Below are positions 6,918 through 62,489 of a DNA stretch of 64,000 nt, piece by piece. Within the stretch, counting starts at the first letter, position 1; each line of letters starts with the position of its first letter. The notes beneath the pieces were generated by a model. It saw nothing but the letters and a program-made list of their open reading frames with translations, ran no database searches and was not told where the DNA came from. The position numbers and the translations under genes are program-made. Origin of the DNA: Eubacteriales bacterium (GTDB lineage Bacteria; Bacillota; Clostridia; Christensenellales; UBA1750); contig JAVBNW010000045.1 in the NCBI GenBank assembly GCA_031551255.1, positions 63,430 through 127,429 of the forward strand, in the 5' to 3' direction.

Positions 6918-6946
6918 TTGCCCGATTGTCGCAAAAATGATACAAT
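6918..6946 (+). promoter_or_regulatory. Sigma-A-type promoter candidate upstream of the 7152 gene
   Basis: TTGCCC (6918-6923), a 17-nt spacer, then TGaTACAAT (extended -10; hexamer at 6941-6946). Confidence 0.45.
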
Positions 6947-7151
6947 ATAGTCTCCGAACCATAAAACATATGCATGGGAGCGGCCAGTTTTTCTGCGTCA
7001 TGGCGCTGTTGCACCAAGCAGGCCGTCCGGCCCGCTTTCGTCCCGCGCCGTACCGCGTAAAAGCATGTTTGCTCCTCCGCGTCCGTTTTGAAGTTCGATA
7101 ACTATAAACGGGGTTTTCAAACACACATAAATTGAATAGGGAAGTGTTTTC

Positions 7152-8066: not shown

Positions 8067-8110
8067 ACTGGCATGGGCCGGGGGCAAAAGCTTCCGGCTT
8101 TTATCGTTAC

Positions 8111-8253
8111 CGACCCCCAAAACACGCAAGTCCAGCGACGGATCGGTTCCCCTCACTTTGTCAGGCTCAGTCGCCATAGCTATGGCTATGCCTCCTTCGC
8201 CTTCCTCGCGAGGAAAACCTCCTGTTCGCTGTCTTTTGAGCGTTTTGGGGTTC
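8111..8253. repeat. Imperfect ~18-bp inverted repeat (CCGAcCCCCAAAAC..GC / GC..GTTTTGGGGtTCGG) enclosing ~110 bp with internal palindromes
   Basis: The left arm lies around 8111-8128 and the right arm around 8236-8253. Internal perfect palindromes are GCCATAGCTATGGC and TTCCTCGCGAGGAA. The element occupies the gap between the 7152 gene and the next gene. Confidence 0.5.
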
Positions 8254-8282
8254 GGAGACTATATCATGAACGAGATGGGAGG

Positions 8283-11151: not shown

Positions 11152-11291
11152 TATATCCCCCCGCTAATATAAATACTCTGTAGCGCCAGTACTTATTTAA
11201 GTAAGAATATCATAGAAAGTCTCTCTGTTCAATCTGATATTTTGGTCCTATCTTGACACCAACACATTTCCTATGCTTGTTGCTCAATGAA

Positions 11292-11340
11292 TGCCAAGAG
11301 CGGGTAGTGTTTGCAAAGCAAACACTACCCGCTCTTGGCA
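11292..11340. repeat. Perfect 23-bp-stem / 3-nt-loop hairpin at the AT-rich/GC-rich boundary
   Basis: tgccaagagcgggtagtgtttgc-aaa-gcaaacactacccgctcttggca. There is no flanking T or A tract. Confidence 0.9.
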
Positions 11341-11445
11341 TGAGACATGACTTGATCATTGCCCTACAATCCACCTTACCGTACCCACGATCATGGGGAA
11401 GAGAATGACGAACGTGCACGCGCACCTTCCCTCGGCGTTCCAACT

Positions 11446-25192: not shown

Positions 25193-25440
25193 GGCCGATT
25201 ATCCCTTCCTTTCTATCATTGCCATTTGATCGCCGTCGAAATCGGCATTATAGTCTACCAACTTCAAAAGCGAAACGACGAGCGAGAGATTTTATCGCAG
25301 GGCAAGGAGGTGAAAGGAGGCGACCCTTCGGGATGCGCCTTCGGCGTGAAATACCTTAAGCTACGCAGACCTATGCTCGACGCCGCCATACGGTAAAAGA
25401 TTCGCTCGCATGCTCCGGTTTCGGGGATGCTTGAATATAA

Positions 25441-25474
25441 AGATTTATAAAGAAAATGCCCGTTTCCGGGCATT
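25441..25474 (-). terminator. Rho-independent terminator of thrC
   Basis: The minus strand reads aatgcccg-gaaa-cgggcatt followed by ttctttataaatcttt. Confidence 0.7.
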
Positions 25475-25503
25475 GATGGATTCCGTGTCCGGATGCGCCC
25501 GCG

Positions 25504-26988
25504 CTATGCCCCGCCGTCTACCAGAAGGTCGACGATTTGGCCCATCTGGGCGATATCGCAAACCGTGCCGTGCAAGACGGGCAGCGTGCGCAAATCGCGA
25601 AGAGGCGCGGGCATAGGGATGCCCGTCAACTGTTCGAGCCTATCCGCGCACGCAAACTCGCTCTCGGGCGTTTCGCCCTCGATCGCCCCGAGTACATCGC
25701 GCGAAAATTTATATGGACTGGCGGTGGCGACGAGCACCGTAGGCGTATGGTCGCCGGTGGAAGCGCGGTAATCGTCGTATACGGCGCGCGCAACGGCGGT
25801 ATGCGTGTCGAGCAGGTAGTGCTCCTCGCGCCACACCTTTTCGATGGTGGCCGCGACGCGCCCATCGTCGGCCCAACCGGCGGAAAATGCCTCTTGCATC
25901 TTGCGCACGCGTTCCCCGCCGATGCTGTAGCCGCCATTTTGCCGAAGCGAAGACATCCAGCGGCGCACGAGAGCCTCATCCCGGTCGCACAGGTCGAACA
26001 GCAGGCGCTCCAGGTTGGAGGAGATAAGAATATCCATCGAGGGCGAGGTGGTTAAGTGAAATTCGCGCTTGGTGCTGTAGTAACCCGACTGGATAAAATC
26101 GGTAAGCACGTTGTTGCGGTTACTGGCGCAAATGAGCTTATGCACGGGCAGGCCCATCTCCATCGCATACCACGCCGCGAGGATGTTGCCGAAGTTGCCG
26201 GTGGGCACCGCGAAATTGACCTTGTCGCCGGGCCGTATGGCCTCCGAGGCGATGAGATCGGCGTAGGCCGAAAAATAATAAGCCACCTGCGGTACCAGCC
26301 GCCCGAAGTTGATGGAATTTGCGCTGGAGAGGATGCGCCCCCGTGCGGCCTGCCGGGCGATGAATGCGTCGCTGCCGAACAACTGCTTAACGCCCGTCTG
26401 CGTGTCGTCAAAGTTGCCGTGCACCGCAGCTACGTAGACATTTGCGCCCGTCTGCGTGGCCATTTGCAGGCGTTGCGCCTCGGAAACGCCTCCGTCGGGA
26501 TAGAAGACCAGCACGCGTGTGCCGGGCACATCCGCAAAGCCCGCCAAGGCCGCCTTACCGGTATCTCCGGATGTCGCCACGAGGATCATGATCTCCTCAT
26601 CCACGCCCTGCTTTTTTCGTGCCAGCGTCAAAAGATGCGGCAAAAGCTGCAGCGCCATGTCTTTAAATGCGCTGGTCGGCCCGTGAAACAGCTCGAGCAT
26701 GTGGCAGGTGGGCAGCGTTACAAGTGGCGCGGGATGCCCGCCAAAGTGATCATAAGCGGCAGCGACGCAGGCTAAGAGCTCGTCCTTGGTATAATCGGCA
26801 AGGTACGGCTCCAGCACGTCGACAGCCCTCTTTTGATACGGAACGGAAGCCATAGCCGCAATTTCCTGGGTGGAGAAGGCAGGGTATTCTTCAGGCACAA
26901 AAAGCCCCCCGCCCGGCGCGATGCCCTTGAGAAAGGCCTGCGCGGCGGTGGCGGTAACGTTATGGTCTCTCGTGCTTATAAGACGCAT
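25504..26988 (-). CDS. thrC: Threonine synthase
   Basis: Track ORF runs to 26997 (GTG). The ATG at 26988 follows GGGAG with 8-nt spacing and gives MRLISTRDHN..., the typical M-x-x-ISTR start. The PLP-Lys motif is HGPTSAFKDMALQ. Confidence 0.92.
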   Translation of the reverse strand: MRLISTRDHNVTATAAQAFLKGIAPGGGLFVPEEYPAFSTQEIAAMASVPYQKRAVDVLEPYLADYTKDELLACVAAAYDHFGGHPAPLVTLPTCHMLELFHGPTSAFKDMALQLLPHLLTLARKKQGVDEEIMILVATSGDTGKAALAGFADVPGTRVLVFYPDGGVSEAQRLQMATQTGANVYVAAVHGNFDDTQTGVKQLFGSDAFIARQAARGRILSSANSINFGRLVPQVAYYFSAYADLIASEAIRPGDKVNFAVPTGNFGNILAAWYAMEMGLPVHKLICASNRNNVLTDFIQSGYYSTKREFHLTTSPSMDILISSNLERLLFDLCDRDEALVRRWMSSLRQNGGYSIGGERVRKMQEAFSAGWADDGRVAATIEKVWREEHYLLDTHTAVARAVYDDYRASTGDHTPTVLVATASPYKFSRDVLGAIEGETPESEFACADRLEQLTGIPMPAPLRDLRTLPVLHGTVCDIAQMGQIVDLLVDGGA

Positions 26989-27003
26989 GCTCCGCACTCC
27001 CGC

Positions 27004-27414
27004 TTAAATGATATACGGCTTGATAAAGTCAGGAGCCGCGTCGGGTTCGCCGCTTACGGAGATGACCACCGTGACGTTGTGCTTTTCCGCCATGTCGTCC
27101 AGGCGCTTGAAAAGCTCGCTAAGGTCGGCGAGATCCGCCTTGACGAGCCTTAGGAACCCGTCGATGTACAGGCAGGACATATCGTAGTTTGACGAGATGA
27201 TCCCGCACAGGAAGCCCAGGAACATGTCGGGGCTGGATACGGAGTACTCCGTTGCGTTGACAAAGCGAATCGCGTGGTGCAAGTCGAACATATAGCGGTT
27301 ATCGTCGTCGATGAACACGAGCGCTCCATCGTTCTCCTTGCTGGCTACGTTGGCCATATCGATGATCCGTTTGGTCTTGCCGGAACCCTTCCTTCCATAA
27401 ATAACCCGAATCAT
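27004..27414 (-). CDS. Minimal (136-aa) P-loop ATPase, uncharacterised
   Basis: Track ORF 27004..27807 is over-extended. ATG at 27414 follows AAGGAGGCG. Walker A is YGRKGSGKTKR and Walker B-like is ALVFIDDD. It ends 15 nt upstream of thrC. Confidence 0.7.
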   Translation of the reverse strand: MIRVIYGRKGSGKTKRIIDMANVASKENDGALVFIDDDNRYMFDLHHAIRFVNATEYSVSSPDMFLGFLCGIISSNYDMSCLYIDGFLRLVKADLADLSELFKRLDDMAEKHNVTVVISVSGEPDAAPDFIKPYII

Positions 27415-34085: not shown

Positions 34086-34416
34086 CGTGTAATCTTCCTT
34101 TCCGTCGTGAGTGCGCGCCTGAACAACATTGCCGTTTTCGGCGACCGCAGCCTTTTCAGGCGTTTTGTGCTGGCTACGCTTATTAAACGTGCGCGCGGAA
34201 AGAAAGTTATGCACGTTTTGTGAAGAAATTGTGGCAGAGTATGAAGCAATGTGATGTCTTAAGTGCGACTAAAAATGATGCGGAGCCTCCGCTGCCCTGA
34301 GTGCGCCGCACCGCGGGTTTTACTTCTTTGCATCCGCCGCGAACCACTTATACCTTCCATACATAGGATGCACTATGCCCGATTCTATCCGGGCGGATGC
34401 AAAGGAGGAAGCAGAT

Positions 34417-35523
34417 TTGCCATATCCATTTCATCGCTGTAATTGCCGCGGAACGTGCTCCTGCGGCGGAGGAACCACCATCGTCGGGGTACCCGGCCCT
34501 GTCGGCGCTACCGGCCCGGCCGGCCTGCCCGGCGCAACGGGAGCTACCGGCCCCGTGGCATTTAACGAAGTAGTGTTGTTTGATCCGCTGCTCGCGCCGA
34601 ATTATTTGCGCGGGCAGATTGTCATTCACAACGGCAGCGCATATGTCGTATTGACTTCGCCGCCGGTCGGCATTCCCGGCTCTTCATCGTCGTATGAGCT
34701 GATCCACATCAACGGCGGCATCACCGGAGCCACCGGGGCTACGGGCGTGGGTGCAACCGGCGCTGCGGGTACAACCGGCGCAACAGGCCCCACCGGCGCT
34801 ACGGGCGTCGGCATCACCGGACCTACCGGGCTTACCGGGCCCGCCGGCCCTATCGGAGCTACCGGGGCAACCGGCGCTACCGGCCCTGCCGGGGCGAATG
34901 GTTTGAGCGTTACCGGCCCCACAGGCGCAACCGGGCCCACGGGTGCGGCGGGAGTCGCCGGTTCCGTAGGCGCCACAGGCCCCATAGGCCCCACGGGCGC
35001 TGCAGGGGCCACTGGTCCTACGGGCGCAACCGGAGCGGACGGCCTGAGCGTTACCGGGCCTACCGGAGCCACCGGCCCCACAGGCGCTACGGGCGCCACC
35101 GGCCCGGCCGGCGGCGGATCGCTTAGCAACACGGCCTTCGCTGCGGCGGTTAGCGGCCCCTCAATCCCTGTGCTGTTGGGCGGAGCAGCCATCGCGCTGC
35201 CCGATGCGCAGGTGCTCCCTGCGGGCATCACCATCAACGCCGCCAACACGGTCTTTACCGTGAACACGGCGGGCGTCTATCGCATCACCTACTTTATCAA
35301 CACCGCGGTCTCGCTGTTGCTGGGCACGCGCCTTGTGGTCAATGGCGCTGCGGTTCCAGCTTCCAACATCACACCGGTGGTCACGCACACGCGCTTTGCC
35401 GCCGAAATTGTGTTGCCGCTTGCCGCCGGCAGTACGGTGGCGCTGGAGTTCTACGGCCTCATCGGGCTTGCGACTCTCGTCGAGGGCGCGGGCGCGCTTC
35501 TGACGATTTCCCAGGTGGCGTAA
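34417..35523 (+). CDS. Collagen-like (G-x-T repeat) protein with a BclA-type C-terminal globular domain; probable spore-surface/exosporium glycoprotein
   Basis: Track ORF starts at 34375. AAGGAGGAA, 6 nt and an in-frame TTG at 34417. The product has the Cys-rich N-terminus [18 protein letters not shown], two GxY runs, and a C-terminal ~130-aa beta-rich domain (...[18 protein letters not shown]...STVALEFYG...). Confidence 0.8.
34486..35118 (+). repeat. Triplet-periodic collagen-like coding repeats (GGN-NNN-ACN), interrupted at 34555-34716
   Basis: [20 protein letters not shown], then about 45 consecutive G-x-y triplets, mostly GAT/GPT. The antisense 213-aa ORF (PVAPV-rich) is an artefact of these repeats. 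Confidence 0.9.
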
Positions 35524-35532
35524 GGCCGGGGA

Positions 35533-35567
35533 GCCGGGCGCGGGGCATGCTCCCGCGCCCGGCGTTT
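35533..35567 (+). terminator. Terminator hairpin after the collagen-like gene
   Basis: gccgggcgcggg-gcatgct-cccgcgcccggc (12-bp GC stem) followed by gttt. The T-tract is short. Confidence 0.6.
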
Positions 35568-35731
35568 ATAGTCGCCGGCCCTGAAAATCCGAACACCTGA
35601 GCGGCCCTTTTTCCGCCCCGCATTGTCTGCGTCGGTCGACGTGGCTGCCGGCCACGCCTCCCTCCGTCTCCGCGCGGAGGCAAAAACAGTGCTCGCTCAT
35701 TTTGTTCGGATTTTCAGGGCCGGTGACTATA
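35567..35731. repeat. 165-bp element bounded by 29-bp terminal inverted repeats (28/29 match)
   Basis: The left arm at 35567-35595 is TATAGTCGCCGGCCCTGAAAATCCGAACA. The right arm at 35703-35731 is TGTTCGGATTTTCAGGGCCGGTGACTATA. The 107-bp core contains the small hairpins gtggc-tgccg-gccac and cctccg...cggagg. Confidence 0.9.
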
Positions 35732-35805
35732 TCGCGGGCGATCCCCAAACGGTTGCCGACCCTGGGGCTAGCCCGCTATATTTTTGCGACGAGGAAGGGA
35801 ATAGC

Positions 35806-36882
35806 ATGGTTACCATCAGCCTATGTATGATCGTAAAAAATGAAGAGGCCGTATTGCGCCGCTGCCTTCAAAGCATTGCGCCCGCGGTAGACGAAATCAT
35901 CATCGTAGATACCGGCTCCACCGACTCTACCAAGGACATTGCCCTGGACTATACGGACAAGGTATACGATTTTGACTGGATCGACGACTTTGCCGCCGCG
36001 CGCAATATATCGTTTGCGCATGCGACGATGGACTACCAAATGTGGCTCGACGCCGACGACGTGCTCGCGCCTGAGCAGCGCGATCGGCTGATCGAGCTGA
36101 AGAAGACGCTCGACCCTGCGACAGATATGGTGACGATGCTGTACAATACGCATTTTGACGCCGCGGGCAATCCGGTGCTCGTGTCCATGCGCGAAAGGCT
36201 TTTGCGCCGGGATCGGCATTTTTTATGGCAGGATCCGGTGCACGAGTGCATCCCGCTGTCGGGCAATATTTTGCATTCCGACATTACCATCGACCATCGC
36301 AAGGAAAAGCACGAAGGGGTCTCCGAGCGCAACCTGCGCATCTACGAAAGGCTGGAAAGCAGTGGAGCCACCCTTACCCCTCGGCAATTGTATTATTACG
36401 CCAGGGAGCTTCGGGATCATGGAAGGTTTGAGCGTGCGGCCGAATTTTTCGAGAGGTTCCTGGCCACCGATCGGGGGTGGAAAGAGGATAACATCGCCGC
36501 CTGCCACGCGCTCGCGCTATGCCTGCGCGCGCTCGGCGAGCGGGAGCGTTCCTTCGACGCTCTGCTTAGCGCCTTTCGCTACGGTTCGCCCCGCGCGGAG
36601 ATTCTAACGGAGATCGGCTATCATTTTAAATTGTCGGCGAATTTTGCCGAGGCGGCGCAATGGTTTCAAGCCGCCGCGGATCTTACGCCGCCACAGGTTT
36701 CGGGGTTTTTGCTCAGGGATTATTGGGGCTACATTCCGCACATCGAGCTGTGCGTATGCTACTACAACATCGGCGACTTGGCCAAGGCGCGGGAGCACAA
36801 CCGCTTGGCGGGCTTGTGCAAACCCGGTAACGCGGCGGTGGAGGAAAACGAGCGGTTCTTTGCTTCGCTTTGCGTGGCCTGA
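35806..36882 (+). CDS. Family-2 glycosyltransferase with C-terminal TPR-like region
   Basis: Track ORF starts at 35623 and crosses the IR element. ATG at 35806 follows GAGGAAGGGA. Sequence: MVTISLCMIVKNEEAVLRRCL...IIIVDTGSTDST...WLDADDVL. Confidence 0.85.
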   Translation: MVTISLCMIVKNEEAVLRRCLQSIAPAVDEIIIVDTGSTDSTKDIALDYTDKVYDFDWIDDFAAARNISFAHATMDYQMWLDADDVLAPEQRDRLIELKKTLDPATDMVTMLYNTHFDAAGNPVLVSMRERLLRRDRHFLWQDPVHECIPLSGNILHSDITIDHRKEKHEGVSERNLRIYERLESSGATLTPRQLYYYARELRDHGRFERAAEFFERFLATDRGWKEDNIAACHALALCLRALGERERSFDALLSAFRYGSPRAEILTEIGYHFKLSANFAEAAQWFQAAADLTPPQVSGFLLRDYWGYIPHIELCVCYYNIGDLAKAREHNRLAGLCKPGNAAVEENERFFASLCVA

Positions 36883-40355: not shown

Positions 40356-40362
40356 CGCCCGA

Positions 40363-40391
40363 TTGACAAGCCTGCTTCCGCCCCCTATAGT
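40363..40391 (+). promoter_or_regulatory. Strong sigma-A-type promoter of ggt
   Basis: TTGACA (40363-68), 17 nt, then TATAGT (40386-91). Confidence 0.65.
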
Positions 40392-40548
40392 TGTGATATA
40401 ATCGGCCTCAAAACCACTGTAACCGGCCGGTAAAAACGCGTGCGTTTTTGCCGTGATTTCTTGTCATTGTGCTTTTGTCTCGCCTTTTATACGGTTGTTT
40501 TGAGGCTGGCCGCTATAAAATGCCATAGCACGCAGGGAGGCAGTGTCG

Positions 40549-47249: not shown

Positions 47250-47829
47250 GGAGGAAAGGTTACATTTCGTCGTCGCGGACTGCGTATTGCTCGCTTCCAC
47301 ACTGCGGTGTGAAAGCTCGTTCACTGCGTCGCTCCTCCTCTTCCATAAAACCGCTGCGGCGGTTTTATGGATTAAGGACGACGAAGAAGGCACGGAGCTC
47401 ACGCTTTTCGTTCTTCTTTCCCCCACAAGACGCCTTAGCGTCTTGTGGAAGAGGAGGGGCCTCGTTGTCGCGGATTGCGTATCGCTCGCGTCGTCGGTTT
47501 GCACTACGCTCTAGTCCCGCAAAACACTGCGGCGTTTAACGGGAATTGGCGCTCCGTGGAATCTCCTCTTCCTCAAAACCGCTGAGGCAATTTTGAGGGT
47601 TAAGAAGAACGAGGGGTAAAGAACAAAAGCTCGCGCTCCCCGTTCCTCCATAAAGAGCACTGCGGCGCTTTTATGGGTTGGGAACGACGAAGAGAATGCG
47701 GGGCGCGCGTTCTTCGTTCTTCTAAACCCCAAAGAAACCTCAGTTTCTTTGGGAAGCGGAGGTTTCACGTAGCGCCAATTGCCCGCAGTACCGCGGTGCG
47801 CGGGGAATAGGGCGTAGTGCAAACCTCCG
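47250..47829. repeat. Largest array of the modular hairpin-repeat family (at least 7 hairpins)
   Basis: Hairpins at 47298-311, 47343-70 (perfect 12 bp, loop TGCG), 47423-48 (perfect 11 bp, loop CTTA), 47516-43, 47571-98 (loop TGAG), 47648-76, and 47728-53 (perfect 11 bp, loop CTCA). CTCCTCTTCC is at 47335-44 and 47563-72, and GGAAGAGGAG at 47447-56. The box TCGTYGTCGCGGAYTGCGTATYGCTCGC is at 47267-93 and 47462-89. Confidence 0.88.
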
Positions 47830-48876
47830 CTATTCGGCCAGGGCGCCGACAAACCAGTGGATTCTGACGAGCTTGTCGCTCTTCGCATCAAAGAAAAATG
47901 AACAGCACGCGTGCTGTCGATAGTAATAGGCGCCGCTGTCAAGGTCCGCATCGTCGCAGGGCTCTACGGGCGCGATCAGGCGCAGCACGTAAGCGCCGTT
48001 TTCGTTCACATCCCGCGATAGTTCGGCCATCGGAGGAAACATACGCCCGTCGGGCCAGATATCGGCGTACAGGGTGGCGGTATCCGCGCCCGAAAGTCGA
48101 TCGTCGGCCTCGTTCGCCGCTTCGTTCGCTTCGTCGATGGAGGAGTCGCGATCAGGCAGCTTTACGCGGAATTTTTTCAGCACCTCCTCAAGCGACGCGC
48201 CCACGCGCAGGCCGCGCGGGCCGGGCCAGTCTTTGGAAGTAACCGTCATGCCGGTGAGACTATTTCCGCCTACAAACTCGGCATACAGCCCGTCGTATGC
48301 GAGCGTCGTAACCTTAAGGCCGGTCAGCTCTTCCGTATGATCTTCGCGCATCGGCGGCTCGCCCAGTTCCCCTATGACCTCCTCCACGCCCGAGCGGGCT
48401 CGGATGCCCATCATGCGAAGATCGCCGGGGACAAATGCCCCAAAGGGTGGCACGTAGCGCGGCGTCGGCTCGGGTTCGGCCAGGGTTTCCACGATTACGG
48501 GCTCCAGCGTGGGTTCCGGCGTAAGCTCCGGGGTGGGGCGGCGCGTGATCAGCGCGGGCCTTGCGCCCGCATGCTCCGCGGAACGCGGCAAGGGCGGCTT
48601 GATCGCGCAGCCGCCCAACAAGCACAGCGCCATAAGCGCTGCGATTGCCCTATATCGGTTCCCCTCGGGGGTTTTTGTGCCGCCTCCCGCAAGCTCTTCG
48701 GCCGGATGATTTTCCGCTATGCCGCGTCGGTTTCGGCCTTGCGCAGTCCTGCCGCGCGATGGTCTCTCCGCCTTGGCAGGCAAAAAAATCTCTTGGCCGG
48801 GCATCATGCGAGGGTTGCCCAAGAAGCCCAATGCCTTTGTAGGATCCCTCATCAGCGCATCCTTTGTATATATCAT
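47830..48876 (-). CDS. Hypothetical membrane-anchored/lipoprotein-like protein with Pro/Glu/Thr-rich linker
   Basis: 348-aa ORF. It has a hydrophobic segment plus a lipobox-like AALMALCLLGGCAIKP about 75 aa from the annotated start, so the start is uncertain (alternative ATG at 48852). The linker is TPELTPEPTLEPVIVETLAEPEPTP. Confidence 0.6.
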   Translation of the reverse strand: MIYTKDALMRDPTKALGFLGNPRMMPGQEIFLPAKAERPSRGRTAQGRNRRGIAENHPAEELAGGGTKTPEGNRYRAIAALMALCLLGGCAIKPPLPRSAEHAGARPALITRRPTPELTPEPTLEPVIVETLAEPEPTPRYVPPFGAFVPGDLRMMGIRARSGVEEVIGELGEPPMREDHTEELTGLKVTTLAYDGLYAEFVGGNSLTGMTVTSKDWPGPRGLRVGASLEEVLKKFRVKLPDRDSSIDEANEAANEADDRLSGADTATLYADIWPDGRMFPPMAELSRDVNENGAYVLRLIAPVEPCDDADLDSGAYYYRQHACCSFFFDAKSDKLVRIHWFVGALAE

Positions 48877-61904: not shown

Positions 61905-61951
61905 GCTACAAATAAATATAATACGTAATATGTATTATATTTATTTGTAGC
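61905..61951. terminator. Perfect 20-bp AT-rich hairpin downstream of hcp (possible terminator)
   Basis: gctacaaataaatataatac-gtaatat-gtattatatttatttgtagc, followed by gttt. Confidence 0.5.
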
Positions 61952-62489
61952 GTTTGAATAAAGGTGTCTGGTTCTTTCATATGAACTTTCCCAAGCCCCC
62001 TGCTTCGTTTTCTGGGCAAGGCCTGGTATCGAGCGCATGCAGTATACTTAAGCGGTAGGGGGCGGCCGGACAGACCTGGATAGGCCGAAGGTTTGCGCGA
62101 TGGAAGAGCGATCGCTGGCCGCAGAAGCTAGCGCAAATACACGCCAAATATCAAAGGTTCCGCCTCAAGAAGGAATAGTCAATGCAAGAAGCTTTTCGCT
62201 TCTTGCATCACCATTCAGACCCAACCTATCAATCGATCCAATCTGTGCGGCGAGCTTTTCGCGGCACTATGTTGCCGCCCATGACGTAGTGCCCGGCTCG
62301 CCTGCGCCCCCTCCTTGGCTTACAAATAATATTCCCGCATATGTTTGGATATTTTTAAGGTTGGGTCGCGATATTTTTCGTTATTGCCTTTGTTATCTGT
62401 CTGAATGGCCCGGGCCGCCTTTTATGGATCATATACAATGGCATCCTTCGAAAAGAAATGCCCCGCGGCAAGCCCGTGGCTTGAGCTGG

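Follow-up and report, generated by a model that had tools for sequence, protein, structure and literature searches.

A multi-copy, probably MITE-like foldback repeat between a collagen-like gene and a glycosyltransferase gene in an uncultured Clostridia-like bacterium

Introduction

Bacterial MITEs, or miniature inverted-repeat transposable elements, are less than 200 bp long, have terminal inverted repeats (TIRs) and 5'-TA-3' termini, and give rise to transcripts with long stem-loops (PMC2229807). The Correia elements, which are 104 to 108 or 153 to 157 bp long, insert at TA, and their transposase is not known (PMC2649163); new promoters can arise from them, and RNase III cleaves them (PMC2649163, PMC10969869). 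For ISY100, of the IS630/Tc1 type, 24-bp TIRs are sufficient, and the TA becomes duplicated (PMC2170065). Here, we analyze a 165-bp inverted-repeat element, E3, that lies between a gene for a collagen-repeat protein and a gene for a family 2 glycosyltransferase (GT2) in a 64,000-nucleotide stretch of an Eubacteriales bacterium (assembly GCA_031551255.1, contig JAVBNW010000045.1, positions 63,430 to 127,429; the window). A first reading of the letters (the original prediction) had offered an invertible switch, a MITE, and an RNA helix as possible explanations of the element. We find that E3 is most probably a non-autonomous, non-coding, MITE-like repeat with a Correia-like foldback, belonging to a multi-copy family and inserted at a TA after a terminator. 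The family seems to be a previously undescribed one, of a known kind of element, in uncultured Clostridia-like bacteria; no published description of its terminus string, or of MITEs in Clostridia, was found in the literature.

The Correia elements of Neisseria (CREE/NEMIS) resemble the E3 family in size (about 105 or about 155 bp, against 60 to 240 bp with a mode of about 160 bp here), in having TIRs of about 24 to 26 nt with TA at the termini and as the target, in their mostly intergenic location near the starts and ends of genes, and in the hairpin formed by the whole element (PMC2649163, PMC2229807, PMC10969869). Neither family has a known transposase. The ends of Correia elements also begin with TATAGT. 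The likeness is nevertheless anatomical, with no known sequence homology past the first few bases, and the hosts are different, with Neisseria on the one side and an uncultured, spore-forming, Clostridia-like lineage on the other. The E3 family also differs in that it has no identified integration host factor site or element-borne promoter and in that its foldback takes in the greater part of the sequence.

RUP of Streptococcus pneumoniae and other MITEs mobilized by IS630 are likewise small, non-coding elements with TIRs that are found in a firmicute, target TA, as the E3 family appears to, and occur in many intergenic copies (PMC2229807), but RUP has a cognate IS630-Spn1 whose TIRs match its own, and no cognate insertion sequence was found for the E3 family. 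The switches of Clostridioides difficile (cwpV, flgB) have inverted repeats of 20 to 30 bp around 100 to 300 bp upstream of a surface-related gene, as E3 does, but each is confined to a single locus and has an asymmetric core with an orientation-dependent signal, whereas E3 is multi-copy and has a near-palindromic core. The bcr1 repeats of the Bacillus cereus group are about 155 bp long, intergenic, and located in a spore-forming firmicute, fold into stable hairpins, and carry an AT-rich motif (TTTAT) where they insert; the E3 family is likened to them by description only, and the host lineages differ.

Results and discussion

E3 and its relatives in the window

The two arms of E3 are 29 nt each, 97% complementary, and 107 nt apart, and they constitute the top-ranked inverted repeat of the entire window at spacings of up to 400 nt. 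The inverted-repeat search thereby confirmed the arms and the 107-bp core exactly where the original prediction had placed them, and the folding of both strands confirmed that the sole arm mismatch, G35574 against T35724, is a G-U pair in plus-strand RNA, where all 29 pairs form. On the minus strand, the same position is a C facing an A and is left unpaired. When up to three mismatches were allowed, a 22-mer taken from the arm had no match in the window other than the two arms themselves, and it had none in 100 shuffles. What had been overlooked is that the core itself is largely self-complementary and close to a palindrome, and the full 165 nt form a single extended, imperfect hairpin, with energies of -95.8 kcal/mol (plus strand) and -107 kcal/mol (minus strand). 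The fold z-score was -7.4 for the plus strand of positions 35520 to 35810 and -11.6 for the minus strand of E3. The asymmetric center of the core contains the local hairpins GTGGC..GCCAC and CCTCCG..CGGAGG as well as a C-rich motif, CTCCCTCC, that is common to other copies of the family.

These other copies were found through the terminus. The consensus TATAGTCnCCGrmCCnnAAAA (TATAGTCNCCGRMCCNNAAAA) occurs five times in the window with at most two mismatches, compared to 0.02 times expected from 100 shuffles, and it is present at both ends of E3 and at ends of two further elements, E1 and E2. E2 and E3 share the ends TATAGTC...GACTATA with CCG-..CC..AAAA just inside them, and E1, E2, and E3 can be aligned beyond the arms over their whole length, cores included. 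An nhmmer profile built from these three training copies recovered two copies outside the training set (E5 and E6), and after enlargement it added a fragment (48701-48795) that is a possible remnant of a family copy. The 64 kb thus contain five full-length copies (161, 162, 165, about 161, and 191 bp) and one fragment, all of them intergenic (Table 1).

The claim that there was no second copy here was therefore wrong, since the profile finds at least four further family members in the window. Two looser relatives had also been listed, and these fared differently: the one at 8111 to 8253 proved to be the full-length copy E2 (8102 to 8263), but the one at 40405 to 40506 has no profile match. The corresponding look-alike, E4, went undetected by the family profiles (nhmmer, E≤10), and its membership in the family is doubtful.

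The neighbors of the window copies are unrelated to each other and include glycoside hydrolase-like and membrane protein genes, a serine hydrolase gene, and the thrC and DUF4180 genes, with E6 lying between the 3' ends of convergent genes. E2 lies directly 3' of a terminator-like hairpin (8075-8100), and E5, which is flanked by two minus-strand genes, starts 15 nt past the thrC terminator stem. Together with E3, this means that three of the four well-defined window copies begin no more than 15 nt from a terminator hairpin and in one orientation relative to it, while the metagenome copies described below showed no association with terminators.

At two other places, an element end meets a promoter-like sequence. 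A TTGCCC-17-TACAAT match (6918-6946) terminates at the first base of E1, and TTGACA-17-TATAGT (40362-40392, found by eye) finishes at the first bases of the doubtful E4. The TATAGT end of an element could act as, or replace, a -10 box, which would parallel the creation of promoters by Correia ends.

Relatives in other genomes and metagenomes

A metagenome scan with the degenerate terminus gave 35 loci (here numbered with the prefix L), mostly from five Joint Genome Institute (JGI) samples, and the same terminus is present in at least 30 metagenome copies. Five of these (L009, L012, L032, L042, and L043) are elements of 159 to 179 bp that match the window-only profile from end to end (nhmmer E values of 1e-11 to 1e-17) and have the motifs TTTTCCGCC, GTCGTCG, CTCC(C/T)TCC, and GGCGAAAAA in common with the cores of E1 to E3. 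Other copies fall into further length classes (Table 1), and a mosaic form of more than 380 nt, built of small hairpin modules, has the same termini in many different flanks and is often found at contig ends. A second terminus variant, TATAGTCAACGCAGTTGAAAA, marks a sister sub-type (sub-type-2). Both the size and the coding content are those of a MITE, with 165 bp for E3, 60 to 239 bp for the other copies, a mode of about 160 bp, and no conserved open reading frame (ORF), and so are the TIRs common to the copies and the presence of several dispersed copies in one genome. The hosts of the metagenome copies have a GC content of 40 to 53%, compared to 58% for the window, and because the GC content of each copy is roughly that of its own host, a long residence rather than a recent transfer is suggested.

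The source organism stands almost alone: its GT2 and ThrC proteins have 100% matches in no more than one NCBI contig (175 kb) and one Logan contig (2 kb), and the matches ranking next are 66% identical for GT2 and 78% identical for ThrC. No copy of the family was found in 21 kb of the relative with the 78% identical ThrC, which indicates a patchy distribution restricted to certain lineages. The search of IMG/VR for the degenerate terminus produced a single match, a chance one that lacked a partner arm, and there was no match in blastn searches of E3 and one metagenome copy against the PLSDB plasmids or of E3 against phages.

Some observations on individual loci may be added. In L030 (14.4 kb, with a fatty acid synthesis cluster), several of the spacers between fab genes hold the hairpin modules of the long form, such as GCAGTAAATGCGAAGCATTTAC and CTTTTGCCTTACGGCAAAAG, without the family termini, which suggests a mosaic repeat organization in this organism similar to that of bacterial interspersed mosaic elements. 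In an independent short-read assembly from this species' window organism, a Logan contig from SRR23967707 (L050, 1998 bp, equal to window positions 25425 to 27383) reaches 14 nt into the E5 terminus and stops there, which could be due to an assembly break caused by the repeat but also to low coverage. The minus strand of the element in L009 (589-748), L012 (522-681), L032 (1039-1198), and L042 (1751-1929) has a mini-ORF in which GGAGG is followed after 8 nt by ATG and 26 codons (e.g., MLAPASDDNEAWQKIVVSICMHFQVR), with the TGA in the GGTGAC of the terminus as the stop. It is probably not coding, as the frame is lost in L043 and E2 and the peptides have many non-synonymous changes.

The family lends itself to being masked or annotated and could serve as a strain marker, and it appears to fragment metagenome assemblies.

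Evidence of movement

A sign that the family may have moved comes from nested copies. In L011, L014, and L018, a long element starts within a sub-type-2 element. At the insertion point, the uninterrupted copy of this sub-type (L011 2181-2348) reads CACAAGGC-TA-GGAGGCG (AAGGC-TA-GGAGG), and the three interrupted copies read CACAAGGC-TA-TAGTCACCGAACC (AAGGC-TA-TAGTCACCGAAC). This is one paralogous comparison of a filled and an empty site, in which the left junction is exactly at the TA and the fetched DNA stops before the right junction. The nested composite was found in three different outer flanks and has therefore been copied as a unit. Intact copies of the family start with TA-TAGTC and finish with GACTA-TA.

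That E3 might be a MITE with TA-bearing ends was one of the readings put forward in the original prediction, and it is the one that our results support. The direct basis for it is the membership of E3 in a multi-copy family, the intergenic dispersal of that family, the conserved terminal repeats, the length classes with their deletion derivatives, the nested insertion at TA, the relatives in other organisms, and the foldback.

From these we infer a mechanism of transposition, a duplication of TA, and the identity of the enzyme. E3 would have arrived by transposition into a TA of a spacer of about 117 bp, delimited by the BclA-like gene's terminator on one side and the promoter and ribosome-binding site (RBS) region of GT2 on the other. 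The transposase would be encoded elsewhere, recognize the terminal repeats, and act in trans, and our leading guess is a TA-duplicating enzyme of the IS630/Tc1 type. In a genome with 58% GC, TA-rich targets would be concentrated in terminator tails and -10 boxes, and such clustering may be the reason why E2, E3, and E5 start on the side of a terminator and E1 and the doubtful E4 start on the side of a -10 box.

Foldback covariation and strand polarity

RNAalifold on nine copies predicted a foldback of 38 pairs; in 22 of these, both sides are altered in one or more of the copies. On this structure, 86.8% of the cells are paired, compared to 33 to 49% in slid controls, and none of 500 shuffles reached any of five measures, with the caveat that four of the metagenome copies are closely related and that the shuffle control ignores relatedness. 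The two halves of the element clearly co-vary well past the 21-nt termini. The foldback also has a polarity, which we determined for E1, E2, E3, and E5 in the window and for L009, L012, L021, L030, L032, L036, L042, and L043. The strand in the orientation of the family model is pyrimidine rich in every copy (GC skew of -0.06 to -0.23), and the reverse-complement strand gives an RNA fold that is better by 8 to 30 kcal/mol in 10 of 13 copies and is not clearly inferior in any. At E2 and E3, the strand with the better fold lies antisense to the neighboring genes. The source of the polarity could be the sequence of a master copy, a hairpin-templated correction of the palindrome, or selection on one single-stranded form. 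This well-maintained, strand-polar foldback is the one feature that merits the attention of specialists.

It is also among the points that weigh against a MITE-like element, which are best considered together. The two-sided changes reach well past the approximately 21 nt needed by a DDE transposase, the strand polarity is consistent throughout the family, and a neutral decay of dead copies predicts neither. No direct repeat was found outside the TATA ends of any copy, and a target-site duplication is inseparable from these palindromic ends, so that the absence of outer repeats fits either a TA duplication hidden in them or no duplication. Neither E3 nor any of the 160-bp copies yielded a pair of filled and empty sites; the L036 element is present in 3 of 3 independent assemblies, and relatives with 77 to 78% identity have another gene context. 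A transposase with matching ends was found neither in the window nor in the approximately 400 kb of fetched loci; in the latter, no inverted pair of termini 0.6 to 3 kb apart encloses a transposase, and the ORFs beside solitary termini were checked as well. Finally, the exact arm of E3 is absent from 185,579 GTDB species-representative genomes and from the JGI metagenomes, the sole arm match in the GTDB scan being a chance hit inside a coding region of Bryobacterales.

Two loci had been considered as candidates for an autonomous element and were rejected, L028 because its terminus match is a chance one inside a coding gene and L041 because it has no transposase-like ORF.

A wider interpretation, which we regard as unlikely, is suggested by the fixed polarity and by two-sided changes that run across about 38 pairs: the family would be a structure-dependent module and not just decaying selfish DNA, with a foldback of about 160 nt that is actively maintained across hosts of 40 to 58% GC. 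The hairpin of one strand, as single-stranded DNA (ssDNA) or as RNA, might then be the substrate of an unrecognized mobilization mechanism. Alternatively, copies might have been adopted by their hosts as transcript-insulating or -processing elements between genes, E3 being one example.

A further explanation is a hairpin-dependent element that is moved as ssDNA by a non-DDE enzyme, for example, a Y1 HUH transposase of the IS200/IS605 type or of the type associated with repetitive extragenic palindromic (REP) units (RAYT). Such an element would account for the maintenance of the foldback by two-sided changes far past the termini, for the consistent polarity, for the lack of direct repeats beyond the TATA ends, and for the way in which the window copies start beside terminator hairpins. 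We consider it very unlikely, however, as the termini of 21 to 29 nt are identical at both ends and carry a 5'-TA, which is typical of TIR-dependent elements, the proximity to terminators does not extend to the metagenome copies, and no gene for a Y1 HUH-type transposase was found. REP units are much shorter than the elements of this family, and the ends of IS200/IS605 elements are not known to be inverted repeats. REP units themselves, attC sites, and CRISPR repeats were dismissed by eye as identities for the element, there being no GTTRRRY core, the wrong size, and no array.

The same covariation, above all 500 shuffles and the slid controls, could indicate a selected RNA module that acts in cis, for instance on processing or stability, as an insulator, or in the form of a small RNA; a multi-stem fold of about 160 nt would then be what is selected, and the dispersal would be secondary. 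The retention of length and internal motifs between hosts of about 45% and 58% GC and the consistent polarity agree with this, and in the window, the three co-directional cases (E2, E3, and E5) all have a model orientation that runs the same way as the genes around them. We nonetheless find a selected RNA quite unlikely. The flanking genes are unrelated, and the positions span 5' regions, 3' regions, and convergent gene ends; the strand that folds better is the antisense one at E2 and E3; L043 violates the orientation rule; and the nested and composite copies, the deletion derivatives, and the copies at contig ends all represent the behavior of mobile DNA. The covariation itself was scored by a shuffle control that is uncorrected for relatedness, with four metagenome copies being close kin, and Rfam gave no match: with Rfam 15, the window had none at the gathering score and only sub-threshold chance hits around E3 (E≤10), and six metagenome loci gave only sub-threshold look-alikes of miRNA hairpins. 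No tRNA or tmRNA was found in the search. The orientation of the elements relative to genes had been tried as a signal in its own right and was discarded, being suggestive in the window but not significant when divergent contexts were excluded.

The collagen-GT2 locus

The gene context of E3 was as the original prediction had described it, with BclA_C and collagen repeats upstream and Glycos_transf_2 and TPR repeats downstream (Table 1). The tail of the collagen terminator runs into the element, as had also been proposed, and the right end lies 74 nt upstream of the GT2 start codon, an ATG at 35806. The only sigma-70-like match between positions 34200 and 36000 is located downstream of E3 and outside it, and a consensus scan found no promoter-like or terminator-like site within 35567 to 35731.

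TABLE 1 Positions of E3, related copies, and flanking features (window coordinates unless a metagenome locus is given)
Feature	Position or locus	Strand	Remarks
E3, 165-bp foldback repeat	35567-35731	+	+ is the family-model orientation and the pyrimidine-rich strand; best nhmmer match, E=1.8e-34, also a training sequence
E3 left terminal inverted repeat	35567-35595	+	TATAGTCGCCGGCCCTGAAAATCCGAACA; first 21 nt fit the family terminus
E3 right terminal inverted repeat	35703-35731	-	TGTTCGGATTTTCAGGGCCGGTGACTATA; 28/29 positions complementary to left arm
E3 core, 107 bp	35596-35702	+	Outer parts prolong the foldback
E1, 161 bp	6946-7106	+	Training copy; divergent intergenic region
E2, 162 bp	8102-8263	+	Training copy; about 29 nt before serine hydrolase (Beta-lactamase family) gene
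E5, degenerate, 191 bp	25249-25439	-	nhmmer E=8e-6; between thrC and DUF4180 gene
E6, degenerate, ~161 bp	~62213-62373	+	E=0.007, then 1.8e-7 with enlarged profile; ends set by eye
Partial weak family match	48701-48795	+	Enlarged profile, E=1.2e-4
E4, look-alike, 129 bp (membership doubtful)	40387-40515		Ends resemble the GC-rich terminus of E3 by eye
Collagen-repeat protein gene with BclA C-terminal domain, upstream	34375-35523	+	Domain match
Intrinsic-terminator-like hairpin of collagen-like gene	35533-35563	+	Tail GTTTATAGTC merges with first bases of E3
Sigma-70-like promoter match TTGCCG-18-TATATT, 9/12	35753-35782	+	Consensus match only
GT2 gene with TPR repeats, downstream	35806-36882	+	Domain match
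60-bp version, almost no core	L016		
140-bp version	L019		
147-bp version	L036		
168-bp version	L021, L011		
239-bp version	L030		

The geometry of the locus fits an invertible switch of the cwpV/flgB kind, which was the first of the readings originally offered: near-perfect 29-bp inverted repeats enclose about 100 bp immediately upstream of a gene for surface glycosylation, and a recombinase encoded elsewhere would flip the 107-bp core between them and thereby gate the expression of GT2. In addition, Correia-type MITEs are reported to invert, according to the passage in PMC10969869 that cites Elbeyioglu et al. 2017, so a MITE may occasionally flip. The rest of our results leave this explanation highly improbable. 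Neither strand of the core carries a promoter-like site, the lone match being the one outside E3, and the core is so nearly palindromic that inversion would change little. The same element, core included, recurs beside unrelated genes, and in other organisms it exists in several length classes, including the 60-bp form nearly devoid of a core. Copies at the same site in different samples (L022/L025, L027/L034, and L036/L044-L046) share one orientation, although the sample is small. The idea of a phase-variable spore-surface glycosylation is thereby removed from the E3 locus. A domain scan covered nine window proteins, and none of these nine is a recombinase.

As for what the MITE-like element does where it is, probably little, the effect on the collagen and GT2 genes being neutral or mildly modulatory. 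In the nearest available GT2 homologue (66% identity), the synteny of the BclA-C-domain gene and GT2 is kept, with a spacer of 127 bp and no element; the spacer in the window is 282 bp, or 117 bp when E3 is subtracted, but this relative is too distant to count as a true empty site. If the collagen terminator is leaky, a duplex of about 60 bp would form in the read-through RNA. By analogy with the Correia elements, this duplex would likely be a substrate of RNase III or a roadblock, or it could stabilize the 3' end, and the outcome would be a tendency for GT2 to become uncoupled from the transcript of the collagen gene. To this extent the RNA helix that had been proposed as a processing or termination signal is physically plausible for read-through transcripts, but it is a consequence of the repeat structure and does not in itself point to a dedicated signal, and any RNA effect of E3 is secondary.

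The public annotation of GT2 (P0001, 397 aa, 35689-36882) begins 39 codons 5' of the RBS-preceded ATG at 35806, so that the annotated start falls inside the core and right arm of E3. This looks like a start codon that was over-extended owing to the repeat.

Other repeats in the window

A non-coding cluster of about 0.5 kb at 47320 to 47830 consists of another small palindromic repeat, with units of 61 to 79 nt (47324-47384, 47552-47612, and 47630-47690), hairpins such as CCATAAAACCGCTGCGGCGGTTTTATGG, and several long-range inverted repeats, and it looks like a second, REP-like family. Two further palindromes, one at 11291 to 11341 with 24-nt arms that are 100% complementary around a 3-nt loop and an AT-rich one at 61905 to 61951 with 23-nt arms that are 96% complementary around a 1-nt loop, are probably terminators or operator sites unrelated to the E3 family.

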